The translations under genes were made by a program, and so were the position numbers. Under the pieces are notes generated by a model that saw nothing but the letters and a program-made list of their open reading frames with translations, did not search any database and had not been told where the DNA came from. Positions 14,963-46,425 of a DNA stretch of 64,000 nt are shown here, piece after piece (position 1 is the first letter of the stretch; every line of letters begins with the position of its first letter). This stretch comes from Patescibacteria group bacterium (GTDB lineage: Bacteria > Patescibacteriota > Patescibacteriia > Magasanikbacterales > GWA2-37-8): assembly GCA_004321885.1 (NCBI GenBank), contig SCQK01000007.1, positions 32,001 through 96,000 on the forward strand, written 5' to 3'.

Positions 14963-15016
14963 GACGGAATTTGAGAGCGTGACTATCTTATTACAAAGCC
15001 GCTTGTTTGTCAACTT

Positions 15017-34082: not shown

Positions 34083-34153
34083 AGAAGCAAAAAAGAGTAA
34101 ATGTTTCCCGCTTTCATTGACTATCGCCCAATTTTTGCTATAATATCGCCGAT

Positions 34154-34245
34154 GGAGAGGTGGCCGAGTTGGCTGAAGGCGGCAGGTTGCTAACCTGTTG
34201 TAGGGCCTTAAAATCCTACCGTGGGTTCAAATCCCACCCTCTCCG
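34154..34245 (+). tRNA. tRNA-Ser (anticodon GCT), with a long variable arm.
   Basis: Acceptor stem GGAGAGG/CCTCTCC, anticodon loop cagguTGCTAAccug and T-arm GGGTTCAAATCCC. It is 92 nt. Confidence 0.85.
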
Positions 34246-34365
34246 CTCAATGAGATGGAATTGAACGTTTGAGAACAGTGCTTGGAATGCGCGTTTATGC
34301 GCTCTTTCCTGCACTTTCAGCGTCACTGATTGAATAGAGACTGGGACTTCGAACCCACGAGGTGA

Positions 34366-34593
34366 TCAGGGCACTTCATCGAGGAATGGCACCTCTATCT
34401 GTCCACCGTCTGGGCTGATCGCGCCGACGCGCCACCCTTCACGCTTCCTTTTCAACATCCAACGATAGACCCGCACAGCGTCGTAGACGCCCTGTGTGAG
34501 CGGTTTTTCTCCGGAATGTGTGAGTTCTTCAGCCTCGTTCTGTTTGAGCCGAAGGTGAAGATCTATTGCCTTCTTGTCAGTCTTCATGGGCAA
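34366..34593 (-). CDS. Small hypothetical protein within the island.
   Basis: A 75 aa ORF in the high-GC context. Confidence 0.3.
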   Translation of the reverse strand: MPMKTDKKAIDLHLRLKQNEAEELTHSGEKPLTQGVYDAVRVYRWMLKRKREGWRVGAISPDGGQIEVPFLDEVP

Positions 34594-34784
34594 AGACTTC
34601 TCCTAGAGTTATGTAGATCTCTCGATCGTAGTTCCAAGAAGTACCGGAGTCAAGCATATTTGTCACACCGGTGCGCGATGTGCTCCCTTGTGGGGGAGGA
34701 AATGGAACGCGCATGTTCGAAAATGTTCTTGACACATCCAATGCGGTTCCGGTACGGTAATACAAACAACCAAACGGAGGAGTC

Positions 34785-35678
34785 ATGGTCGGCAAGGTCG
34801 CGATCTTCGGGGTGTTTATGGGAACGTTCGCCGCTGGTTGTGGCGAACCGCTCGGCGGGAGCGATGACCAGGACGTCGAACAGGTCGTGCTTCAATATCT
34901 CCGGGATCACGATCCGGGCATCACGCGAGGGTCGCCGGAGTACATGGTCTTCCTTAAGGACATCCTGTGGGGTTTGCACCCCGACCTCTTGAATCACAGT
35001 CGCGGGACGAAGATTGGCGAGTTCGCCGCGGCGTATATTAGCAATGCTGTAGCGCCGCTATTGGATGATGAACAAGCTCCGAGGCCGACCATCCAGTCAC
35101 AGACTTCCGCCCTCACCAGCGGCTTCAACCGCAACGCCGTGGTGAACTATGCATATGCTTGGGCGAGCAACGGCGGCAAGAAAAGAAACGGTGCTTACGT
35201 CAGTTTCGACAATGACTGCACGAATTTCGCCAGTCAGGCGATCAAGGCCGGTGGAGTCCCGGCAATTGGTAGCGGCTCGTGCGGCTATGAGGAGACGACC
35301 TGGGAGTGGTACTCCCAGTTCTCCTTGGCTTGGTGGTGTCTCAAGAAGTGGGCCGTTTCCACCACGTGGGTCAGGGTCTCTGAGTTTTACCAGTACCACG
35401 TGCAGAACAAGCGTAACGCATCGACTGGCCTCTACTACCTTGGCAACCTGAACTCCTTGCGGTCTGCAGCTCGTCCGGGCGACATCATTCAGCTGCAGTT
35501 GGCTTCCAGCGGCACCCTGTTTCACTCGATGGTCGTGACCAAGAAGGACAGCACCGGCGAGATCTATTGCACCTATCACACCGGTCCCAACGGCTACGAT
35601 GTCGTTGACAAGCCGCTGGCCTCCATCGCAGCCAACTACGGGAACACGAGCTACTATCGTCTCAACAGGTTTGACTAG
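34785..35678 (+). CDS. Putative amidase-domain lipoprotein (Amidase_6-like cell-wall hydrolase).
   Basis: Lipobox FAAGCG. NAVVNYAYAWASNG...YVSFDNDCTNFASQAIKAGG is typical of the putative amidase domain. Confidence 0.55.
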   Translation: MVGKVAIFGVFMGTFAAGCGEPLGGSDDQDVEQVVLQYLRDHDPGITRGSPEYMVFLKDILWGLHPDLLNHSRGTKIGEFAAAYISNAVAPLLDDEQAPRPTIQSQTSALTSGFNRNAVVNYAYAWASNGGKKRNGAYVSFDNDCTNFASQAIKAGGVPAIGSGSCGYEETTWEWYSQFSLAWWCLKKWAVSTTWVRVSEFYQYHVQNKRNASTGLYYLGNLNSLRSAARPGDIIQLQLASSGTLFHSMVVTKKDSTGEIYCTYHTGPNGYDVVDKPLASIAANYGNTSYYRLNRFD

Positions 35679-35754
35679 CAAAGCGGCAACAACGCCCGCC
35701 CCGAAGCCCTATTCCACCTGCCCGTCGTCATTGTTTGTAAGTCGCACATATTCT

Positions 35755-36231
35755 ATGACATTTCGTCGTCGCATCGGTATCGTCTTCGTCTGCATCCTGC
35801 TCGGGTTCGTTGTTCTGTTCGTGGCAGGACCCGGTTTCATGGTGGTCGACAACAGGGACATCCGAGCCGCCGATGATGTCTCAGCGGAGGACATGGCCGC
35901 TTGGCTGGGAGATGCTGGCTGGCAGGCGGATGCTACAAAACATTACTATCTCATCAACGTATCGGGAGTTGTGCATTCTCTCTCGCCGCGATCGCTCAAA
36001 TACCTCGAGGCGCGCATCACAAATACCAAGGCGAATCTGCGCGTGTACGCCGTCACACCGTTATTGGGTTTTGTCGTTGAACCGTTTCGACTCGGAACGG
36101 TGAGCCTCCTGTTTCTGATAGAGACACCGGAAGAGCGAGACCTAGCGGACATCATGCGGCAGTTCAGCTTCTGTGTACGTCAAAGTGATCAGAGCGGGCT
36201 ATGTATGCCCGTGTTGTCGGGGACACGTTGA
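35755..36231 (+). CDS. Membrane hypothetical protein within the island.
   Basis: N-terminal TM IGIVFVCILLGFVVLFVAG. Confidence 0.35.
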   Translation: MTFRRRIGIVFVCILLGFVVLFVAGPGFMVVDNRDIRAADDVSAEDMAAWLGDAGWQADATKHYYLINVSGVVHSLSPRSLKYLEARITNTKANLRVYAVTPLLGFVVEPFRLGTVSLLFLIETPEERDLADIMRQFSFCVRQSDQSGLCMPVLSGTR

Positions 36232-37672
36232 ACTGGCCGGCTTCGGAGCGGAGCGACTGATCATACCCCGGCGCCAACGTGATCTGCGGCGATCCGGTGC
36301 TGAGCTCCACCTTGGCGACCACCGCCTCGATCACTGAGCGCCGTGTCACCGGGTCGTCGCTGGCCAGCTTGGCGTTCATGGATTCCACCACCTCAAGCAT
36401 GGTGGCTCCTCGCTCGTCATCCAACAGGTTCTCCGGTCTGTTCACCAAGAACCACTCGGTTGCCCGGATCTGCTGGAGGACTGCGCCGCGCTCCTGATCG
36501 TACTGGCTGTCGTCGACCAGGCCCCTGGCGTACTGACGAGCCAGATCCTTCAGCTTCTCGTCGAGCTCGCGCCGTTGCTGCCTGAGCAGGCGAATCCGCT
36601 CGCCCTGCTCCTTGCTTCTGGTCCGGCGTGCCTGGCGCTCCGCCCGGCGCAGGACAGGGACCATGGTGGCAGGCAAGTCCATTGCCAGCAGGTTGGCGCA
36701 GATCTCATTGTCAAGGTCGGCCGCTCGGGTGCAGAAGCTACAACCCTGCTGGTGGCAACGGTAGTAGTCGTGGATTCTGCCAGACTTCTTGATGTGTCGC
36801 TCGCCGGTCAGCGTCGCGGCGCACCTCGGGCATCTGACCTTGCCGGCCAGGACGAAGACCAGATGCTTCCGGCCGCCTCGCACACTGCCTCCGGCTTTTT
36901 GCCGAAAGACCTCCTGGCACCGGTCGAAGAGCTCTTTGGAAACCAAAGGTGGATGACTGCCCGGGTAGCTCCTGCCCCTGCTCATCATCACGCCGATGTA
37001 GAACGGATTCTTGAGCAGCCGGCACCATTGGTTAACCGGTACTTTCTTGCCGTGGACACCCACCAGGCCGCTGCTGTAGATCGTGTCCGCCAGCTGGCTG
37101 GCTGTCAGCTTTCCCGTAGCCCACAGTTCAAACGCTTCTCTCACCCTCGTTGCCCTCGCCGGATCCAGCACCACACGATCATTTTGCATCAAATAGCCCA
37201 GACAAGGGCGGCCGAACCATTTGCCCCGAAGAAGGCGCTCTTCGAGGCCCTTGCGAACCTCGGCCGAGAGGTTCGCGCTGTAGAACTCTGCTTGTGCTGC
37301 CATAATGTTTTCCAGAAACTCACCCATAGGGGTCGCTTCAAAGGATTCCACCACCGAAAACAGCTTTACTCCATATTCCTTGAGCTGGCCCTTCAAGATG
37401 AGATGATTAAAGACGTTGCGGGACAGCCGGTCGATCTTGTGGACGACGAGGCCACTGATGGACTTGTCCCGTTTGACGTGGCCGATGGCGGCCATGAGCC
37501 CCGGACGCCCGCGCAACTGCCTGCCCGAGCTGACGTCCTGGTACCTGGCGGCCACGATCAAACCACGTTCCTCGGCGTATCGCTGCATCAGCCGAAACTG
37601 AGCCGCGATGGAAAGCTCGCGTTCCGCCTGCCGAGTGGTGGAGACGCGAGCGTACAAAATGACTGCTGACAT
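36164..37672 (-). CDS. Large serine recombinase (resolvase catalytic domain, then a recombinase domain, a zinc ribbon and a coiled coil).
   Basis: N-terminal ILYARVSTTRQ catalytic-serine motif, DRLSRN, and a Cys cluster CPRC..C..C. It is 502 aa. Confidence 0.85.
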   Translation of the reverse strand: MSAVILYARVSTTRQAERELSIAAQFRLMQRYAEERGLIVAARYQDVSSGRQLRGRPGLMAAIGHVKRDKSISGLVVHKIDRLSRNVFNHLILKGQLKEYGVKLFSVVESFEATPMGEFLENIMAAQAEFYSANLSAEVRKGLEERLLRGKWFGRPCLGYLMQNDRVVLDPARATRVREAFELWATGKLTASQLADTIYSSGLVGVHGKKVPVNQWCRLLKNPFYIGVMMSRGRSYPGSHPPLVSKELFDRCQEVFRQKAGGSVRGGRKHLVFVLAGKVRCPRCAATLTGERHIKKSGRIHDYYRCHQQGCSFCTRAADLDNEICANLLAMDLPATMVPVLRRAERQARRTRSKEQGERIRLLRQQRRELDEKLKDLARQYARGLVDDSQYDQERGAVLQQIRATEWFLVNRPENLLDDERGATMLEVVESMNAKLASDDPVTRRSVIEAVVAKVELSTGSPQITLAPGYDQSLRSEAGQFNVSPTTRAYIARSDHFDVHRS

Positions 37673-37847
37673 AGGAGAGGGGTTAAGAGTAACTCCACCT
37701 ATGGTCGCAGCGCCCGAGCTGCTTTACAACCAAAAGAGAAACCACTATAATTGAAGTGTTTTTATGTTACTACATGCGGATAACACGCTGGGAGTCGGAC
37801 AACCGGAAGGAAACAACCGGGTACGAAGGACGTCCCAGAATCCCCGC

Positions 37848-39455
37848 ATGCGCGCAGTTGCAAAAATTTTTCTTCTTCTGGCCGGCTGGCTTATCGTCGT
37901 TTCCATTGTTTCCAATTCGTTTGACAACGACCTGGGCTGGCATTTGCGCTTTGGCCAAGACGCCCTAAGCGGCGATTTTCAGTACACCGACAGTTATACC
38001 TGGGGCTTTGCCGGGCGCGAGTGGGTAAACCACGAATGGGGGGCCGATATTTTATTTTGGATTATTTACAGCCGCGTCGGCTACTTCGCCCTGGCGCTTC
38101 TCATCGGCACGGTAATCTGGGCGGCATTTGTGCTGGCGCCTCTTATTTTTGCGCGTTTCAGTTTAGGCGCTCTCGCGATTTCGCTGCTCATGGCCCTGGC
38201 CGCGGGCTTTACTTTTGTCACGCGCGTCTCCATGGCGGCGCCGCTGTTTTTTGTTTTGCTCTGGTTTTCGCTGGAAAGAAAAAAATATTTTTTCCTGTGG
38301 CCGATTTTATTCTGGGCGTGGTCTTTTCTGCATGGTAGTTGGATACTGGGATTTATTTTAATAAACATTTATTTGGTTGGAGAAATAATTCCCTCCACTA
38401 TTAGAGCCTGCCCTGAACTTGTTTCAGGGGGAGGGACAAAAGGTGGAGTTGGCAAGAAGCTCTGCTGGCAAATCATTTCCGCGGCCGCGATTCTTCTCAA
38501 TCCGTACGGCATAAAACTCTGGCGCGAGGTGCTCTCCTATTTTATATACAGCGACTACAAGCGGCTGATTATTGAATGGCTGCCAAGCTACAGTTACCCC
38601 ATTCGCTGGTGGCCCATAATTATCGCGGGAGCGGCCGGCGTTTTGCTTTACCTGGGGTGGAAAAACAAAAAAGCGTCTTTGACCCACGTATTGTTATTTT
38701 TGGCCATATTTTTAGCCGCCATGCAATACAAGCGCAACAATATTTTGCTGACGCTCGTTTGCGCGCCGATTTTCGCAATAGCTTTGGAAGAAACAAAGAA
38801 GAAACTACTCTCAATTGCCATTCCGAACCCGAAGGGTGAGGAATCCCTTCGCCTTACGAGTAAGTTTAAGGGATTCCTCGCTCCGCTCGGAATGACAACG
38901 GCGATTGTCCTCTTCGCCGTCTCAGCCGTTTATTACCTTCCCCGCCTGCGGGCGCAAAATGACGTCTGGCAGGACAAAAATTTTTTGACCCGGCACGGCT
39001 TTCCGGTCAAAGCCGTTGATTTTGTAAAAAAACTACCGGCCGGAGCGAAAATTTTCAACGAATTCGGCTGGGGCGGTTTTTTTATCTGGCAAACGCCGCA
39101 AGTAAAAATGTATTTTGACGGACGGGGCGCGGCCACCTGGCGCGACGCCAATGGCGAATTCATGCTTAAAAAATATCTGCGCTACCTTGGCGAAAAAAAA
39201 CAGTTGCCCGAATTAAGCAAAACTCCGGCTGAATATATTTTGCTGGAAAAAAACAGGCTGGCCCTGCCGCCGCCCGGCTGGAGCGACAAACTGTTTTTCA
39301 AAAAAGAAAACTTGGCAAAAATAATGGAGCGCAAGCCGCCGTTGCTTGAAACCGACCTGACGAAAAGCAGTGATTGGAAACTGATTTACAGCGACGAGAT
39401 GACGAACATTTGGAAAAGAACCGCGGACATGAATTCCGGCTCAAGCCCGGAATGA
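37848..39455 (+). CDS. Polytopic membrane protein, possibly a GT-C-fold glycosyltransferase. It contains two in-frame palindromic insertions.
   Basis: More than 10 predicted TM segments. The elements at 38395-38445 (..RACPELVSGGGTKGGVG..) and 38866-38905 (..PKGEESLRLTSKFKGF..) are translated in frame. Confidence 0.5.
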   Translation: MRAVAKIFLLLAGWLIVVSIVSNSFDNDLGWHLRFGQDALSGDFQYTDSYTWGFAGREWVNHEWGADILFWIIYSRVGYFALALLIGTVIWAAFVLAPLIFARFSLGALAISLLMALAAGFTFVTRVSMAAPLFFVLLWFSLERKKYFFLWPILFWAWSFLHGSWILGFILINIYLVGEIIPSTIRACPELVSGGGTKGGVGKKLCWQIISAAAILLNPYGIKLWREVLSYFIYSDYKRLIIEWLPSYSYPIRWWPIIIAGAAGVLLYLGWKNKKASLTHVLLFLAIFLAAMQYKRNNILLTLVCAPIFAIALEETKKKLLSIAIPNPKGEESLRLTSKFKGFLAPLGMTTAIVLFAVSAVYYLPRLRAQNDVWQDKNFLTRHGFPVKAVDFVKKLPAGAKIFNEFGWGGFFIWQTPQVKMYFDGRGAATWRDANGEFMLKKYLRYLGEKKQLPELSKTPAEYILLEKNRLALPPPGWSDKLFFKKENLAKIMERKPPLLETDLTKSSDWKLIYSDEMTNIWKRTADMNSGSSPE

Positions 39456-39464
39456 CAATCGCGG

Positions 39465-40262
39465 CTAACCCCTGGCCAAAGTGAGCCAGTAAATTTTTTG
39501 CGCGCCGGCCGCTTTCAGCACGCGCGCGCATTCCTGCATGGTGGCGCCGGTGGTGTAGACATCATCAACCAGCAGAACGTATGCGGGCGCCGGAGCCGGT
39601 CCCTTCCACGCGAACGCGCCGGCCACGTTTTGCGTCCTTTCCTCTTTGCTTAACCTGGCTTGATGAGGAGTGTAGCGGGTGCGAACTAATACCCCCTCCT
39701 CTATCCTCCCCCTAATAGGGGGAGGGTTCTGTGTGAGTCCCTCCCCTTTTAGAGCCTGCCCTGAACTTGTTTCAGGGGGAGGGATACAGGGAGGGGTATT
39801 CAAAGAGTCCAAAAAAATTTTTGCCAACACTTTCGCCTGGTTAAAGCCGCGCTCGCGTTCGCGGCGCGGGTGCAGGGGAACTGGAAGAACTGACCAGCAT
39901 ATTGGCTCCACAGCCCCGACTAAGTCGGGGACTATGGAGCCAGCCACGCTAATTATCGTTCCGACCGAGCAGAGCGAACGGAGGAACCCCTTTTTCTCAC
40001 TTATTATTTTTTCAAAAACATTTTTAATGTCTTTGGCAAAGCCGTATTTGAATTGTTTTATCAGCCTGCCCACGGGCCCGTTTTCTTCATAAACAAAAAA
40101 AGACGCACCTCGGTCCAGGTGCGCGTCCGCGGGCCAAAGCGCGCACTCATTTTGGTGTTTGGCCCGGCAAAGCTTGCACCACCACTCCCCTTCCACGCCG
40201 CAATCCACGCACGAGACCGGGAAAAGAATATCTTTGAACCAGCGCGCGGAGGCGGCCAGCAT
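39465..40262 (-). CDS. comF: ComF-family protein (double zinc ribbon plus phosphoribosyltransferase domain), with two in-frame palindromic-element insertions.
   Basis: N-terminal CVDCG..C..C and C-terminal PRTase motif VLLVDDVYTTGATM. The elements at 39700-39805 and 39904-39944 are translated. Confidence 0.75.
   Translation of the reverse strand: MLAASARWFKDILFPVSCVDCGVEGEWWCKLCRAKHQNECALWPADAHLDRGASFFVYEENGPVGRLIKQFKYGFAKDIKNVFEKIISEKKGFLRSLCSVGTIISVAGSIVPDLVGAVEPICWSVLPVPLHPRRERERGFNQAKVLAKIFLDSLNTPPCIPPPETSSGQALKGEGLTQNPPPIRGRIEEGVLVRTRYTPHQARLSKEERTQNVAGAFAWKGPAPAPAYVLLVDDVYTTGATMQECARVLKAAGAQKIYWLTLARG
39904..39944. repeat. Copy of the 43 bp CCCCGACTAAGTCGGGG element inside comF.
   Basis: Identical to 20823-20864. 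Confidence 0.8.
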
Positions 40263-40263
40263 A

Positions 40264-40866
40264 CTATTGCCAGCTCACGGCGCCGACCAGCCACTCATTG
40301 CCGATTTTAAGCAAATTTACTTTATAGGAAACCTGTTTGGAAGACGTGGCGCCCGCTTTTTCCTCTACGCGCGTGGCCTGCAAAGCCACCCCGGCGCTGG
40401 CGCCGTCCCAGTCGCTAAGCGACGAAGCGATGACCTTGGTTGTAACGCCCAAAAATTCCACGGCCGGTTTTGTATTTTTAAGAGGCGCGCTGATTTTTTG
40501 CCACAAAACATCAGTTACCAAATTTTCCAGCTCGCGAATATTGTCATAATTATTGTCGGTGGAATATGTGCCATAGCGCTCCACGAAAATTTTGGCTATC
40601 TGCCTCACCCCGTTTTTTTGCGCTTCCAGCGACGTCGGTTTTTTCACCACCAGCGGCGTGGTGGTGGCCAAGGGATTTTGCACTCCCGCCGGCGTGCCGT
40701 CCGTGTAAGCCGCGGGTAAAACATTTTCAGTTTTGTTTTCTTCGGCCGGCGGCGCTGTCTCCGATTTTTTCTTTCCGGCATACGTTAAAAAAACGCTGAC
40801 ACCGATAATTATGATAACTATCGCTCCGACGAAAATGAAAATTCTGGCGCGTAGAGGCATATACAA
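40264..40866 (-). CDS. Membrane-anchored hypothetical protein.
   Basis: N-terminal TM IFIFVGAIVIIIIGVSVFL. Confidence 0.45.
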   Translation of the reverse strand: MYMPLRARIFIFVGAIVIIIIGVSVFLTYAGKKKSETAPPAEENKTENVLPAAYTDGTPAGVQNPLATTTPLVVKKPTSLEAQKNGVRQIAKIFVERYGTYSTDNNYDNIRELENLVTDVLWQKISAPLKNTKPAVEFLGVTTKVIASSLSDWDGASAGVALQATRVEEKAGATSSKQVSYKVNLLKIGNEWLVGAVSWQ

Positions 40867-40875
40867 AATTTATTA

Positions 40876-42747
40876 TCACTGATTTTCTTTTTCAAATTCT
40901 TTTTTGGCCGCTTCAATGTCCAGCAACTGCTGGGGATTGGTGGTCACAATCTGGTCTTCGGTGTAGGAGGCCACCACTTTAATGGCCGCGTGCTTGTTGC
41001 CGGCGAAAAAAATCCCCTCACCCACAGCGCTTTCCAAAAGCAGATATTTTTCGCCCTCGGTTAAAATAAACACTTTTTGCACCAAATCAATGGCCGCCGG
41101 CGACTGACGCAACAAAAGTTGCAGGGCCGAGTTCGTCACAATCGCCTGACCGTATTGCGAGCGCAAAAAATCATTCACATCCTGCGTGATGGTGGTAACG
41201 CCCAAAAAATATTTGCGGCAGCGCTTGACCAGGGCGAAAATAAAGCGAGCGCTGTCCTCGTGCTGCATCAGCCACCAGGCCTCGTCTATGGCCAGAATCC
41301 TTTTCTTGCGCTCCGAACGCACAACGTTCCAAATATAGTTGACGATGGCGTAAATGGCCAGGGGGCGCAACTCGTCTTCCAAATCGCGCACCGAAAAAAC
41401 CACCAGCTGATTTTTCACGTCCACGTTGGTGGGCGAATTAAACAGACCGCTAAACGTGCCCTCGGTAAATTTTTTCAATTTCAAGACCAGCTCGTTTGAC
41501 CCTTCCATGCCCTCCAAAATTTCCTCCAAATCCTGCATAATGGGCGGCGTCACCTTGGTCAAATCCGCGTCCGGCGTGATATCTTTTTTGGCGTAAGTTT
41601 CTATGAGCGCGCGGTCAATGATGGAATCCTGCTCGGTGGTAAGCCCGCCCAGCATGATGCGCAACAGCCCCTTCACGGTAATGACCGCCCCGCGGATAAT
41701 ATCATCCACGGAAATTTCCTGACCCACGGGCCGCGGCAAATCAAAGGGGTTCACCTTGCTTTCCGAAGATAAAGAAATATTTATATAGGTGCCGCCCACG
41801 GCATCGCACAAATGCTTGTATTCCATTTCCGGGTCAATCACGATAATGTCCGTGCCCATCATCATGGTGCGCAAAATTTCCAGCTTGATGGCATAACTCT
41901 TGCCGGCGCCGGAAGTGGCGAACACCACCATATTGGCGTTTTGCAAAGAAAAGCGGTCAAACAAAATCAGGCTATTGTTGTGTCGGTTGATGCCGTACAA
42001 GATACCGTCATCCGAGGTGAGCTCGGCGGAAATAAACGGAAAACTGGCCGCGATGGGGCTGGAGTTCATGTTGAAAGCGACCGCGATTTCATCGTTGCAT
42101 AAGGGCAGGGTGGAATTAAAACCCTGCTCGGACTGATAAAAAACCTTGCGCGAATAAATGAGCTTGCCGCCAAAAACATTTTCAATGTCTTCGCAGGTCT
42201 GGTCCAGCTCTTCTTTGGTTTTGGCGTAAACCGTAACATAAAACGCAAACTGAAAAAAATGCTCGGTGCCCTGGGTGAGATTGTCGCGCAGTTCTTCTAT
42301 GTCGCGCAGGGCGGTTTCGCGAATCGGGTCGCGCGGCGCGCCTTTTTCCGCGTCGGCGTTTATCTGCGCTTCCAGGGCGCCGACTTTATTGCGCAACTGC
42401 TTCAAAATTATAGCTGACTTGACCGGATAAAAAAACATGCCGATGTCCATGGTCACGGACATATTAAGAATGGGCGAACTCCAGCCCACCGAAATATAGC
42501 GCGGATAGGTGATGACAAAAATGGTGCGGCAAAAAATATCGCCCAGCTTCACGAAGCCGGTCTCCACGTTGAAAGCCGAGGGCGCGATGATGTCCTTAAT
42601 GGAAACCGTGCCCTCGCGATAAGCCCGCTCTTCGGCCAAAATCATGGTCTCGGCCGCGGCTTTCTTTTTTACCGCCTCTTCTTCTTTGCGCAGGCGGCTC
42701 TCGTCGGGCTGGCCGGTTGGTTTTACGATTTTTGGTGCAAAAGCCAT
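40876..42747 (-). CDS. virB4: VirB4/TrbE-family type IV secretion ATPase.
   Basis: Walker A VVFATSGAGKSY, with DUF87-like architecture. Confidence 0.75.
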   Translation of the reverse strand: MAFAPKIVKPTGQPDESRLRKEEEAVKKKAAAETMILAEERAYREGTVSIKDIIAPSAFNVETGFVKLGDIFCRTIFVITYPRYISVGWSSPILNMSVTMDIGMFFYPVKSAIILKQLRNKVGALEAQINADAEKGAPRDPIRETALRDIEELRDNLTQGTEHFFQFAFYVTVYAKTKEELDQTCEDIENVFGGKLIYSRKVFYQSEQGFNSTLPLCNDEIAVAFNMNSSPIAASFPFISAELTSDDGILYGINRHNNSLILFDRFSLQNANMVVFATSGAGKSYAIKLEILRTMMMGTDIIVIDPEMEYKHLCDAVGGTYINISLSSESKVNPFDLPRPVGQEISVDDIIRGAVITVKGLLRIMLGGLTTEQDSIIDRALIETYAKKDITPDADLTKVTPPIMQDLEEILEGMEGSNELVLKLKKFTEGTFSGLFNSPTNVDVKNQLVVFSVRDLEDELRPLAIYAIVNYIWNVVRSERKKRILAIDEAWWLMQHEDSARFIFALVKRCRKYFLGVTTITQDVNDFLRSQYGQAIVTNSALQLLLRQSPAAIDLVQKVFILTEGEKYLLLESAVGEGIFFAGNKHAAIKVVASYTEDQIVTTNPQQLLDIEAAKKEFEKENQ

Positions 42748-42752
42748 AGGTA

Positions 42753-43433
42753 TTATTCTACCTGCATCTGATTCGCCGGCGCCAGGTATTGGCTAAACGC
42801 CACGTCCGGATTATACGTTGAATAAAATAATTCTATCAGGGATTGCGTGTCCAGGCGCGCCACTTCCAGGTTCATTGAAGCCAAACCCCCTTCCACCTGG
42901 CGCACGCGCGCGTCTAAATCTTTTTTTCTCTGCAAAAACCGGTCTTCTTTGAGAGTGATGATAGTAGCCGGATTAATCGTCTCCATCGCGCGCGGCCAAA
43001 AGCCGCGTTTTTTGTTAGAAAGCGGGTCGTAGGGCACAATCACGAAAAACTGTTTGCTCATGATTTTGCCGAGCGACACCAGCTCGGTGATAAACGAGCG
43101 GTAATCGGCCGTCTGCGCGCGTAAAAGCTCGTTGCTTTGCTCGCGCTCTTTGGTTAGTAATTTTTCCAGATAGGGCTTGATATATAACTGACGCGATTGC
43201 ACCACCACCTGCAGGGGAAAATCCAGGGAGTTCAAAAAAGAAACATACGACGACACCAGCGCGTTTTGCTCTTCCTCGCTTTTGAGCGCGAAATTAACGC
43301 TGGAAACCATCAGCAGGGCGCGCAGGGTGCCGTCTTTCATGACAACAGTGTCTGATTTGATTTCAGAAAAAGGCAGATGATTCTGCGCGGACGGAATAGC
43401 TCTTTTTTTGGCCAGCGTTTTTTTATTTTGCAT
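42753..43433 (-). CDS. Hypothetical protein immediately upstream of VirB4 (possibly a split VirB4 N-terminal domain or a T4SS accessory protein).
   Basis: A 226 aa ORF tightly coupled to virB4. Confidence 0.4.
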   Translation of the reverse strand: MQNKKTLAKKRAIPSAQNHLPFSEIKSDTVVMKDGTLRALLMVSSVNFALKSEEEQNALVSSYVSFLNSLDFPLQVVVQSRQLYIKPYLEKLLTKEREQSNELLRAQTADYRSFITELVSLGKIMSKQFFVIVPYDPLSNKKRGFWPRAMETINPATIITLKEDRFLQRKKDLDARVRQVEGGLASMNLEVARLDTQSLIELFYSTYNPDVAFSQYLAPANQMQVE

Positions 43434-43441
43434 ATGTTTTT

Positions 43442-43476
43442 CCCTCCCCTTGCGAAGGGGAGGGTTAGGGAGGGGT
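43442..43476. repeat. GGGGAGGG-family palindromic element (intergenic).
   Basis: ccctccccttgcgaaggggagggttagggagggg. Confidence 0.6.
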
Positions 43477-43477
43477 C

Positions 43478-43906
43478 TTACTCGGGTTTGTAATATCCCC
43501 CGGTATTCACAATCAAAGACAAATCCCTGATTCTGTTATACGACAATCGCGGCATGGCCTTGGCCGCTTCTTCTATTTTTTTCTCCGCGTTCGCTTCGCG
43601 CAATTTTTTCAAATCGGCGTTGGAATATTTTTTCTGCCAGATGCGCAGGCTGGGCCGGCGCGCGGTGCCGGCGATATTTAGGATAAAATAATGAAACGGC
43701 TGGCCGTTGATTTTGACAAAAGCGAAGGTCAGCGACAAGCCGCCGAAAAGCGCGGTGAGGAAAATAAACAAAGCCATGTCGGCCAATTTGAAAGACAAAA
43801 ATATCAACAGACTGCCTGCGAGCAAAATGATAAACTGCCTGGTGGTGATGGGCCCAAAAATTTTGTCTTCCACGTCTATGAATTGCGGCACCGTGAATTG
43901 ATCCAT
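43478..43906 (-). CDS. PrgI/VirB3-like small membrane protein of conjugative type IV secretion systems.
   Basis: MDQFTVPQFIDVEDKIFGPITTRQFIILLAG followed by two TM helices resembles PrgI-family proteins. Confidence 0.55.
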   Translation of the reverse strand: MDQFTVPQFIDVEDKIFGPITTRQFIILLAGSLLIFLSFKLADMALFIFLTALFGGLSLTFAFVKINGQPFHYFILNIAGTARRPSLRIWQKKYSNADLKKLREANAEKKIEEAAKAMPRLSYNRIRDLSLIVNTGGYYKPE

Positions 43907-43907
43907 A

Positions 43908-45038
43908 CTATAATTCTTTCTCCATCGCCACTATCGCTTTTATTTCTTCTATCTTTATCCCGCCTTTTTCCGTCGCTGTCTGCGCCAGGGTTTTTCTGTC
44001 GGCCAACGCGCCGCACACCGCGTCCATGTATTCCAAATAAAGAGGGCTCTGTTTCCAGGCGGCCTGCGCGTCCATATATAATAGGTAGGATTCGTCGCGC
44101 AGGTTGATGAATTTTTGTTTCAGGCGCTGGCCCGCCTCGGCGCAGTTTTGCGCCAAACGGCGAAAATCCGTCAGACTAATATATTTTACCTCATCTATGG
44201 GTCCCATTTCAACAGGCGGAGCGGAAATATCCCGCATGCTCTGTTTTACCGGCGCGCTTCCTAACTTGAACGACGAGGATTGTGTAGCCCCCTCCCCTCT
44301 TAGGGAAACCGTCATCTTCCCCTCCCCTTGATAAGGGGAGGGCTCGCCACCACACCAAAATTTTTGGTGTGGTGGCGAGGGAGGGGCAGTCGCAACCGGC
44401 TTCTCTTCAGGCGCCAAAAGCGCGTGCAAAAGCTCGTTGGCTTTTTTCTTGCTCTCGGGCACAGTTGGTCCCCCCCCTCCTTTAGAAGGAGGGGGCAAGG
44501 GGGTGGTCTTGACCTTTTCTGAATGTTCAAACGGGTTAAACGGAGTTGCTGTCGCCGGCAACAATACCTCTTCGCACGCTCCCGCCGCTTTCTCGGCCTG
44601 ATTGGCCGTAAAACCCATGCCACCGTCTTTTATGGAACGCAATAAAATATTTTTCGTTTCTTCGGGCGAGCGCACGTCTTTGAGGCGCAACTGAATAATA
44701 CTGCGCAAGCGATTGATAAAGTTGGGCGGCACTGGAAAATTTATTTTTTTGAGCGCCTGGTCCACCTGGCTTAGGCGCGGCTCGCTCAATTTCGGCGCGT
44801 CGCCCTTGGCCGGCGCCGGCTCTTCCAAAGGCGACCGAAAATCATTATTCGCTTTCTTCGTTCCCATCATCGGCGCCGTGGGATACGGCGGTCGTTTTGG
44901 CGCTACTTTCACTCCCTCCCCTTTTAGGGGAGGGGCAGGGAGTGGGGTATTGTGCGCCGCTTGTCTTACCTGCGACAAAGGCATGCGCACAAAACTGCCG
45001 TCGGCCTTTTTTACCAAAATTGTTGGTTCGTTTGGCAT
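43908..45038 (-). CDS. Proline-rich hypothetical protein carrying at least four in-frame palindromic-element insertions.
   Basis: Translated elements: PLPAPPLKGEGVKV, PLPPPSKGGGGPT and SPPHQKFWCGGEPSPYQGEG. The ORF extends to 45101 through a further element. Confidence 0.45.
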   Translation of the reverse strand: MPNEPTILVKKADGSFVRMPLSQVRQAAHNTPLPAPPLKGEGVKVAPKRPPYPTAPMMGTKKANNDFRSPLEEPAPAKGDAPKLSEPRLSQVDQALKKINFPVPPNFINRLRSIIQLRLKDVRSPEETKNILLRSIKDGGMGFTANQAEKAAGACEEVLLPATATPFNPFEHSEKVKTTPLPPPSKGGGGPTVPESKKKANELLHALLAPEEKPVATAPPSPPHQKFWCGGEPSPYQGEGKMTVSLRGEGATQSSSFKLGSAPVKQSMRDISAPPVEMGPIDEVKYISLTDFRRLAQNCAEAGQRLKQKFINLRDESYLLYMDAQAAWKQSPLYLEYMDAVCGALADRKTLAQTATEKGGIKIEEIKAIVAMEKEL

Positions 45039-45093
45039 ATTATTTACCCCTGCCTCCCTCCCCCTTAAATAAAGGGGGGGACAGGAGGGGGTA

Positions 45094-46425
45094 TTATTCA
45101 CTAACTAATTTTAAGTCTTTCGCCACCTGCGCGGCCAAGGATTCCACGCTGTCAAATTTTTTGGGCAGGCGCAAATAACGTTCGGTGCGCGCTTCTATTT
45201 TTTTTCCATACAAATCGCCCGCAAAATTCAAAACATGAACTTCCAGGCAGTCTTTTTTTGTTAAAGAATTATATCCATAATATAGCAAGCCGGAATACCC
45301 CTTCCCCTGCCCCTCCCCTAAAAGGGGAGGGTGGCTATCGGTGGTTCCTCCCCTTTTTAGGGGGAGGACAAAGGAGGGGGTATTCGCAATGAAAGCGACG
45401 GAGCACGTATACAATCCCCTGGGCAAATTTTTGGCCAGCGCCACGTCCAAGTTGGCCGTGTGAATCCCTACTTTATCCCCTTGTCCATAGCCGGGCAAAA
45501 CCGCGCCGGCCACCACGCGCGAACGGTGTAAAAACACAATTCTGGTTACGGCCGCCGCCAGCGCCGCCGCTCCCAAAATTTGCGTGGCCGATAACGCGTT
45601 GCCATTTAAATAATAATCCAAAATAATGGCGGACACGGGCCAGGACAGCTCGCACAAAGTCGCCACCGAAGCGGTGATTTTTTTCAGGCCGAAATAGTAC
45701 AAAAACATGGCCGCGGCTCCGGATGTAAAAACTATAATGATTAAAGTCGTCCACTGGGCCGCGCCCACCGACGGCAGAGAGGAAAAATAGCGCGCCGCCG
45801 GAATCGCCATAATCAAAACCGTGAGCCCAAAGCGCAAAGCCGCCAGCAGGCCATAGCTGATATTTTTTAGGGAATATTTTCCAAAGGTGGTGGCCGAACC
45901 CCAGGCAAACGCGGCCAGCATGGAAAAACCGGCGGCAATGGGAACAGCCGACATCGCGCTAGAAACCGCGAACGGATTTTTGAAAGTAACAAAATATCCC
46001 GCGACCAGCGCGAGCGGGGCGTAAAAATAAAACGAGCGCGGAAATCGCTCGCGTAAAAATATGGCGGCCAAGATAATCGCGAAAATCGGCTGAAATTTTT
46101 GCAAAAGAATCACTACGGAAATATCTTTGAAGCCCGTGGCAAACAAGGCCTTGGTGATAAAAATCGTGCCCAAAGCCCCGCCAAACAAGGCCACCCAAAA
46201 AATTGCGACCCACTCTTTGCGTTTTATCAGTTTTAACTGGGCGCGGTAAACAACCAAAAACGGCAACAAGGCGACAAAACCGAGCAGGTGCTCCAAAAAC
46301 ACCAGCAAGGCCGGTTGCAAGGAATACAAACGGGGTCGCAAAAAAGTGCCGTCCAAACTCCACAGCAGAGCGGCCAGCGCCACGGCCATTGCCCCGATAA
46401 TCACGCTATTTTTTTTCATAATCAT
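45094..46425 (-). CDS. Putative fusion of an EamA/DMT-family 10-TM transporter with a C-terminal riboflavin kinase domain. The kinase domain carries an in-frame palindromic insertion.
   Basis: About 300 aa of paired EamA-like TM repeats, then GQGDKVGIHTANL...GLYTCSV..EVHVLNFAGDLYGKKIEARTERYLR (RFK motifs). The element at 45298-45385 encodes ..TTDSHPPLLGEGQGKGYSGL... Confidence 0.55.
   Translation of the reverse strand: MIMKKNSVIIGAMAVALAALLWSLDGTFLRPRLYSLQPALLVFLEHLLGFVALLPFLVVYRAQLKLIKRKEWVAIFWVALFGGALGTIFITKALFATGFKDISVVILLQKFQPIFAIILAAIFLRERFPRSFYFYAPLALVAGYFVTFKNPFAVSSAMSAVPIAAGFSMLAAFAWGSATTFGKYSLKNISYGLLAALRFGLTVLIMAIPAARYFSSLPSVGAAQWTTLIIIVFTSGAAAMFLYYFGLKKITASVATLCELSWPVSAIILDYYLNGNALSATQILGAAALAAAVTRIVFLHRSRVVAGAVLPGYGQGDKVGIHTANLDVALAKNLPRGLYTCSVAFIANTPSFVLPLKRGGTTDSHPPLLGEGQGKGYSGLLYYGYNSLTKKDCLEVHVLNFAGDLYGKKIEARTERYLRLPKKFDSVESLAAQVAKDLKLVSE

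Follow-up and report, generated by a model that had tools for sequence, protein, structure and literature searches.

The window analysed here is a stretch of 64,000 nucleotides (nt) from a metagenome-assembled genome of Patescibacteria (candidate phyla radiation, CPR). It contains a single tRNA gene, tRNA-Ser(GCT), which is preceded by a promoter-like sequence (TTGACT-16-TATAAT, 34117–34144) and followed by a GC-rich island with a gene for a large serine recombinase (LSR). The LSR gene is convergent with the tRNA, and its product is recorded as 'recombinase family protein [Patescibacteria group bacterium]' on a contig of 214,539 bp. In addition, the island encodes a lipoprotein with an Amidase_6 domain, a membrane-anchored protein (ORF158; ORF, open reading frame) and a small basic protein (ORF75). 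The genes and sites considered below are collected in Table 1.

Table 1. Genes and sites at the tRNA-Ser(GCT) locus of the window
Feature	Position	Strand	Basis
tRNA-Ser(GCT), integration target; mature sequence preserved	34154..34246	+	ARAGORN; Rfam RF00005, 59.3 bits
Proposed attL: GTTCAA 34225-30, N12, CC 34243-44 (tRNA positions 71-72), N16, TTGAAC 34261-66	34225..34266	+	Family junction architecture
GCGC-loop-GCGC hairpin and T-run, tRNA-proximal element end module	34289..34310	+	Terminator-like; in register with hairpins 3' of LSR genes in L004, L005, L007, L099
ORF75, small basic protein	34366..34593	-	Gene called on Logan contig L001
Amidase_6 (NlpC/P60-like, YjcM-like) lipoprotein, cargo gene 1	34785..35678	+	Pfam PF12671
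ORF158, membrane-anchored Ig-like beta-sandwich protein, cargo gene 2, candidate amidase partner	35755..36231	+	Predicted model, homologue pairing
Large serine recombinase, 502 aa, intact, convergent with tRNA	36164..37672	-	Pfam, PHROG, homologue alignment
Imperfect inverted repeat with TTAAC-N3-TTAAC-like motif, directly 5' of LSR ATG	37673..37704	-	Conserved position in relatives
Promoter-like TTTACA-17-TATAAT within the element, outward toward the membrane-protein gene	37723..37751	+	11/12 matches
Candidate attR: GTACGA 37821-26, N17, CCGC 37844-47 (identical to tRNA positions 71-74)	37821..37847	+	Far-end scan

Composition and genes of the island

The composition of the island is distinct from that of the host. 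Between 34247 and 37708 the GC content is 0.576, compared with a mean of 0.488 (standard deviation 0.031, maximum 0.5315) in 1,072 non-overlapping segments of the same size elsewhere, and the 3.5 kb 3' of tRNA-Ser form the GC maximum of the window. The GC content at third codon positions (GC3) is 0.76 for the LSR gene and 0.75 for the amidase gene, with 13 other genes of the window at 0.50–0.66. An initial annotation of this DNA had described a GC jump immediately 3' of the tRNA. The GC-rich island is confirmed, but the rise is gradual, from ~0.52 directly past tRNA-Ser to 0.63 within the LSR gene.

Judged from its sequence, the recombinase is a full-length LSR with intact catalytic residues, in agreement with the initial annotation, which had placed the catalytic serine in ARVSTTRQ. 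The Resolvase domain (Pfam PF00239, 1.6e-30) covers residues 4–152 and the Recombinase domain (PF07508, 1.4e-10) residues 173–258. Among 28 homologues, S11 (motif YARVSTTRQ) is nearly invariant, and D81, R82 and R85 are invariant. The profile Zn_ribbon_recom (PF13408) scores 22.6 bits, below its cut-off of 25.3; in the same 28 homologues the zinc-ribbon cysteines C281, C284 and C306 are invariant and C311 nearly so. Residues 212–401 align to the C-terminal domain of the A118 integrase (E = 5e-4), and the protein matches PHROG_95 'integrase' at 3.7e-79. The similarity to the TP901-1 and A118 integrases is distant, and the identity to any phage or solved protein is 22–34%.

The inverted repeat directly 5' of the LSR gene is likely a regulatory site. 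A TTAAC-N3-TTAAC(C) motif is also present 10–20 nt 5' of the LSR start codon in three related loci (L007, L099 and L098) and could serve as an operator or translation signal. An RNA hairpin at the LSR 5' end was considered as well and rejected as not significant (z = -0.74).

The first cargo gene encodes the amidase, for which both earlier assignments hold: the match to the Amidase_6 profile is strong (PF12671, 1.2e-26, 94.3 bits, cut-off 23.2), and the N-terminus, MVGKVAIFGVFMGTFAAGC, fits the lipobox pattern of a lipoprotein by inspection. The residues D144-C145-T146-N147-F148, H247, H265 and D272 are invariant, and the DCTNF motif and His residues are typical of NlpC/P60-like cysteine amidases. 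Only four close homologues were found, and amidase homologues also occur without an LSR. The AlphaFold2 (AF2) model has a low confidence (predicted local distance difference test, pLDDT, 59.7). Its top Foldseek match is B. subtilis YjcM (7e-6), taken from a model of the YjcM–YjcN complex, and faint further matches include amidase and CHAP domains and Tse1.

ORF158, the second cargo gene, has six distant homologues. One of these, in locus L101, lies directly 3' of an Amidase_6 homologue with 43% identity to the window amidase. Because the two homologues are adjacent in L101, the amidase and ORF158 constitute a conserved pair. The ORF158 model (pLDDT 80.7) combines a transmembrane helix with an Ig-like beta sandwich, for which the fold matches are generic only. 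It is plausible that the pair represents a surface peptidoglycan hydrolase and a membrane partner, which could be a regulator or an immunity protein. Small membrane proteins had initially been noted among the cargo; ORF158 has a clear anchor, but it is the only such protein. The remaining gene, ORF75, has no match in Pfam, PHROG or PADLOC and no homologue in other family elements; it is a possible, if unsupported, candidate for a regulator or directionality factor.

Related recombinases at tRNA 3' ends

About 45 LSR homologues with 40–58% identity were identified, mostly on Patescibacteria-type contigs, and eight family loci were fetched for the context of the LSR gene. In five of the eight, a tRNA gene lies downstream of the LSR gene and convergent with it. 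The distance from the LSR stop codon is 46 nt to tRNA-Ala in L007, 82 nt to tRNA-Arg in L005, 105 nt to tRNA-Arg in L004, 1.0 kb to tRNA-Ala in L099 and 1.9 kb to tRNA-Ser in the window. One family member is located at a non-tRNA, att-like site. A clustering of the LSR sequences by tRNA target was not seen, all pairs being 40–55% identical.

The mobility of the family is illustrated by one LSR (P0002), which occurs in two genomic contexts. These share a segment of 1,775 bp that is 99.7% identical and has the LSR as its sole gene, and in the L004 copy the homology ends inside the last bases of tRNA-Arg. Since this LSR-only segment is shared by two contexts, the family includes autonomous elements that consist of the LSR alone. 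Close family members are cassettes of 1.75–3.4 kb, and the LSR is their only common gene; a small ORF common to the family elements, which might have served as a directionality factor, was not found. The cargo is variable. PADLOC identified SIR2-HerA in L097 (2856-5821), DUF4297-HerA in L098 (1895-4874) and the candidate defence gene PDC-M36A in L005 (6340-7842), and L099 carries small ORFs with no assigned role.

Tandem arrays of related LSR elements were observed in L002 (7760-13124) and L097 (85-2652). At the junctions of these arrays, the end of the new element directly adjoins a duplicate of the next element's far arm, so that attP-like junctions are present in the chromosome. The arrays imply insertion at the distal junction of a resident element, a non-canonical reaction for a serine integrase.

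In IMG/VR, no relative of the LSR with more than 35% identity was found. A separate LSR lineage in that database is represented by L020 and L021, which are 99.8% identical up to 6–7 nt inside the 3' end of a tRNA-Ala. L020 has a 48 bp site with near-perfect inverted arms of 15 nt (GTTCGGATTTGGATG...CATTCAAATCCGAAC), and by sequence the two look like the attP and attL of another LSR lineage that targets tRNA genes.

Site architecture and proposed ends of the element

The tRNA-side junction of the window, read in the tRNA sense, consists of the T-loop hexamer GTTCAA, 30 nt and the inverted hexamer TTGAAC. The same architecture is found in L004, L005 and L007, with TCGAAC, TTGAAC and CCGAAC, respectively, as the inverted hexamer. 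About 20 nt beyond, a GCGC-loop-GCGC hairpin followed by a T-run is aligned in register in the window, L004, L005, L007 and L099. The pattern GTTCRA-N30-YYGAAC is rare, occurring once in the 64 kb of the window and twice in 1.46 Mb of unrelated LSR loci. It is present at 4 of the 16 testable tRNAs in the fetched sequences (those of the window, L004, L005 and L007) and absent from the other 12. In L002 and L097, complete attP-like sites of the form GTTCRA-N35-TCGAAC are located ~90 nt past the LSR stop.

Two comparisons, L004 with L002 and L021 with L020 from IMG/VR, place the crossover within an overlap of 4–7 nt at the very end of the tRNA. When the centre is set at tRNA positions 71–72, the hexamer lies 12 nt away on the tRNA side (the attB half-site), 16 nt away in the element arm next to the tRNA and 17 nt away in the far element arm, that is, 4 and 5 nt farther than on the tRNA side. 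According to the model of the A118 integrase, positions 16–24 of attP half-sites and 11–19 of attB half-sites are taken up by the zinc-ribbon motif, a shift of 5 bp (Rutherford et al. 2013, PMC3783163). The observed spacings fit this published shift, as does the 35 nt spacer of the attP-like sites, and we infer that the hexamer would be the zinc-ribbon motif of the family. A mirror-symmetric reading of attL (14/14) was replaced by the 12/16 reading around tRNA positions 71–72 once the attP-like sites and the symmetry of the attP in L020 were taken into account. In the window, the attL crossover would fall inside CCGC (34243–34246).

The far ends of the elements were searched for by scanning 8 kb beyond each LSR start for the hexamer (at most one mismatch), followed by N17 and the four bases of tRNA positions 71–74. 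In L004, the scan recovered the known element end. In L005, it gave one match, 1.8 kb upstream, from which the empty site is predicted to consist of tRNA-Arg followed directly by an intrinsic terminator with a 20 bp stem, an order that would be natural. This empty site would join the left flank, up to L005 6187, to the sequence from 9546 on. An independent Logan contig (L006) spans L005 6158-9569, which corresponds exactly to the two 30-mers that are common to the filled and empty forms in a k=31 graph. Because the breaks of this contig match the predicted 30-mer nodes, there is good evidence that the sample of L005 contains both the filled and the empty form of the 3.35 kb element, and that element ends can be located with the model.

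In the window, the same scan gave a single match in 8 kb, the candidate attR. It lies 148 nt from the LSR start, in the 175 nt gap before the neighbouring membrane-protein gene, and we estimate the probability of a chance match inside this gap at ~0.006. The boundary comes from a model derived from relatives, and its assignment, the weakest step of the reconstruction, is slightly more likely than not. The right end would then more likely be at ~37845 than at ~37740, as first annotated, and the element would measure ~3.6 kb instead of ~3.4 kb. The true start of the neighbouring gene is most likely ATG 37848, because the NCBI model has 535 residues and the N-terminal 'MR' is conserved in the syntenic locus L009. 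The proposed right end abuts this ATG, and therefore the predicted empty site joins the tRNA end directly to it. The reconstructed empty site of L004 is equally tight, with the ATG of a host gene 9 nt past the tRNA end.

The predicted attB of the window element is GGGTTCAAATCCCACCCTCTCCGCATGCGCGCAGTTGCAAAAATTTTTC and its predicted attP is CCGGGTACGAAGGACGTCCCAGAATCCCCGCTCAATGAGATGGAATTGAACGTTTGAG. The reconstructed attP has the 35 nt spacer of the family, and its proximal arm matches that of L097 at 10/16 positions by inspection. Within the element, the outward promoter-like site in the LSR upstream region may keep the displaced downstream gene expressed; the LSR-only element of L004 has a comparable outward site in the same region (10/12 matches).

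Several other candidates for the ends were examined. The first attR candidate, GTTAAG-N19-GC at 37682–37708, was rejected: it has two mismatches, is at chance level (3.35 expected per 260 nt) and overlaps the conserved motif of the 5' untranslated region. A lone GTTCAA, 82 nt past the LSR stop, has no partner site. Flanking direct repeats around the island were not found beyond chance, and a local alignment for a tRNA remnant at the far end of the island scored no higher than shuffled sequences. Nor was an inverted counterpart of the proximal arm found, by a search too insensitive to recover even the known L004 site.

Origin of the island and relation to known systems

We propose that the island is an integrative element of ~3.6 kb (~34245–37845) that its own LSR placed at the 3' terminus of tRNA-Ser(GCT), and we assign this reading a probability of about 0.8. 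In the proposed mechanism, the LSR would bind an attB in which the tRNA itself provides the left half-site, with the T-loop hexamer GTTCRA 12 nt from a crossover at approximately tRNA positions 71–74. The attP would be composed of the two element ends, which would present the same hexamer inverted, 16–17 nt from the crossover. Strand exchange would keep the mature tRNA sequence and place the element between the tRNA and the next gene. The element would bring with it the two-gene cargo, the small ORF and probably an outward promoter for the displaced gene. The core of the initial annotation, a foreign element at tRNA-Ser that is mobilised by the LSR and carries an amidase lipoprotein, is supported, and its term 'minimal integrative element' suits the size and gene content of the close relatives.

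The proposal is also consistent with the relatives of the flanking gene. In L009 (43% identity) and L008 (42%), tRNA-Ser(gct) adjoins the orthologous membrane gene, and the four island genes are absent; the right flank of L009, with ComF-like and VirB4-like genes, is syntenic with the window. The comparison with relatives argues against an ancestral locus and for the insertion originally suggested, with the limit that these relatives are distant. In L009 (1-7912), the gene of a different LSR (31% identity, 547 residues) overlaps the 3' end of the corresponding tRNA-Ser(gct) by 37 nt. Its neighbours are a Zot-like P-loop ATPase and a Rep-like protein, and the region is locally GC-rich (0.44–0.49 vs 0.32), which suggests that another LSR element, unrelated to the first, has used this tRNA end. 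Because the L009 tRNA is occupied by a different LSR, the tRNA-Ser end appears to be a recurrent LSR landing site. In L008 (1-360), 5' of the membrane gene, tRNA-Ser(gct) is cut by the contig end and is followed by a small GIY-YIG-like ORF and then by the tRNA 5' half once more, in an incomplete copy with an inserted hairpin, which may be the footprint of a homing endonuclease.

Several observations weigh against the insertion of the island by its own LSR. The cargo is located between the LSR stop and the tRNA in the window and in L099, and upstream of an LSR that abuts the tRNA in most relatives. The hexamer of the candidate attR has one mismatch, and no directionality factor was identified in the element. 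Window 34218–38430 is matched without differences by Logan contig L001, assembled from what is probably the source sample, and this contig gives no sign of an empty allele. It has no break at the proposed attR, and on the tRNA side it ends 1 nt away from where the predicted attB would place the break; given this offset and the missing attR break, the break inside the tRNA was rejected as evidence of excision, and it is explained by a tRNA 30-mer shared with other community members. The window copy may be fixed or immobile. No empty site was obtained from a close relative, as genome and metagenome scans and a protein search gave relatives of the flanking gene with at most 45% identity and exact look-ups of both flanking proteins were unsuccessful. 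Moreover, tRNA-Ser and the membrane gene share a strand in the window but are on opposite strands in L008 and L009. Either the tRNA or the tRNA together with the island is inverted in one lineage.

Some of these observations would suit an ancestral or domesticated locus, inherited vertically, whose recombinase serves host inversion or a regulated rearrangement: the inverted arrangement relative to L008 and L009, the lack of an empty allele in the source sample and the imperfect attR. Such an origin is nevertheless extremely unlikely, since the composition is strongly unlike that of the host, syntenic relatives lack the genes, mobility is demonstrated for the family and the LSR has a full C-terminal region of the integrase type. 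The initial annotation had alternatively suggested a degraded prophage; on such a reading, the LSR would be the phage integrase and the amidase a surviving lysin, with the remaining prophage deleted. A temperate phage remnant is very unlikely, despite the PHROG integrase family being the best profile of the LSR, the phage integrases among its distant homologues, a weak PHROG 'peptidase' match of the amidase (4e-7) and the Zot-like and Rep-like genes of the different LSR element at the L009 tRNA. We found no structural, packaging, replication, lysis or holin genes, and PHROGs gave nothing for the two other ORFs and only integrase/DNA-invertase for the LSR. Furthermore, close family members are complete at their small size without phage genes, IMG/VR holds no near relative, and the amidase lipoprotein is paired with a conserved membrane partner, outside an LSR context as well. 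The designation as a lysin is likewise not supported.

It is also conceivable, although unlikely, that the island is a composite, in which an LSR-only cassette and the amidase module arrived separately, either through tandem accretion or because cargo was inserted between the LSR and its own att arm; the 3.6 kb would then not move as a single unit. The tandem arrays of L002 and L097 and the amidase homologues without an LSR agree with this scenario, as does the lone GTTCAA past the LSR stop, which is at the position of the att arm in minimal elements. However, no further att-like site lies between the amidase module and the LSR, and the genes for both proteins have the same unusual GC3. The proximal arm and hairpin beside the tRNA match the module of the LSR family, and L099 shows the same topology with cargo in between.

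Beyond the window, we tentatively suggest a wider model, which we consider to fall a little short of probable. A Patescibacterial LSR clade would have adopted the tRNA T-loop hexamer GTTCRA, which is conserved universally, as the zinc-ribbon motif of attB, with the adjacent T-stem/acceptor-stem sequence setting the choice of tRNA. Autonomous cassettes, down to 1.75 kb in size, would home harmlessly to different tRNA ends, stack there and shuttle one- or two-gene cargo (SIR2-HerA, DUF4297-HerA, PDC-M36A and the amidase pair), and they may carry a rescue promoter.

Serine integrases are the main tools for large DNA insertion. In nature they are regarded as inserting into protein genes or between genes, with tRNA genes left to tyrosine integrases. 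The recombinase of the window resembles phage-type large serine integrases (A118/LI, TP901-1, phiC31, Bxb1) in the order of resolvase, recombinase and putative zinc-ribbon regions and in the conserved Ser, Arg and Asp residues. The resemblance extends to short att sites with inverted half-sites and an overlap of a few nt, and to the distal motif of attB, which is 5 bp nearer the centre than in the distal attP arm, as in A118. In contrast to these integrases, the window element targets a tRNA 3' end and not a protein-coding gene or intergenic site, and the family elements are small (1.75–3.6 kb), with no phage genes and no evident directionality factor.

By analogy of function, the nearest systems seem to be the tRNA islands of tyrosine integrases and the SCC (staphylococcal cassette chromosome)/Ccr cassettes at rlmH. 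Tyrosine-integrase islands (P4-like, Islander type) also insert at tRNA 3' ends with the tRNA preserved and the integrase at one end; they have variable cargo that includes defence genes, and they form tandem arrays. Their recombinase is unrelated, however, and the overlap here is ~4–7 nt, without a long direct repeat of the tRNA 3' end. SCC elements, mobilised in staphylococci by Ccr LSRs, home to the 3' end of one conserved gene, rlmH, stack in tandem and carry variable cargo; unlike the present elements, they target a protein gene and measure 20–60 kb. The serine transposases TnpX/TndX, of the LSR type, and IS607 belong to similarly compact elements in which a serine recombinase is the only essential gene. 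The IS607 recombinase is small and has the reverse domain order, whereas the catalytic domain is N-terminal in the present protein of 502 residues; TnpX/TndX choose their targets loosely, whereas the LSR family here shows a strict tRNA-end architecture.

The large serine integrases of this family appear to recognise the conserved tRNA T-loop, and such targets have rarely been attributed to enzymes of this class. In the main text of a large LSR discovery study tRNA is absent, and our literature search found no paper on tRNA-targeting serine integrases in Patescibacteria. In the TIGER survey, islands with a serine integrase (S-Int) at t(m)RNA genes accounted for 14 of 297 cases; use of a tRNA gene by an S-Int was described as previously unreported and in need of experimental proof (Mageeney et al. 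2020, PMC7192596). As in that survey, S-Int-bearing integrative elements are mapped to tRNA genes here; the difference is that a whole Patescibacterial clade with a defined site architecture is involved.

Taken alone, the window holds an ordinary small genomic island with a well-supported annotation and likely ends. What has been gained beyond the initial annotation is the site grammar at the level of the family, the evidence that relatives are mobile and a proposal for the right boundary. If the wider model is true, the site grammar of such a clade could be read from its T-loop hexamer, its fixed spacings and the 5 bp attB/attP shift, and the clade would be a directly testable case. It would also provide very compact integrases aimed at highly conserved targets, and show how defence and cell-surface genes pass between Patescibacteria with their tiny genomes.

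Other repeats and gene clusters were observed in the window outside the island. Short palindromic repeats resembling repetitive extragenic palindromic (REP) sequences, of several families, are scattered through it, and none lies within the island. They are located at 38390–38449, 38863–38897, 39738–39797 and 39903–39944, and also at 15015, 18768, 20824, 27028 and 43428–45331. Some are inside ORFs and keep the frame, adding peptides such as ...PELVSGGG... to the membrane protein and the ComF-like protein, and one end of Logan contig L001 is such a repeat. Between 55494 and 61445, direct and inverted repeats of 170–240 nt with 93–96% identity occur among ORFs of 150–460 residues and adjoin very large ORFs (1,089 and 1,254 residues); they may represent paralogous cassettes or a shufflon-like region. 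Finally, a gene block that follows the membrane gene is kept in the window (39465–45101) and in L009 (9498-17469). It comprises a ComF-like protein, a VirB4/TraC-like ATPase of 623 residues and several small membrane proteins, and it is probably a patescibacterial type IV secretion or competence-related cluster.

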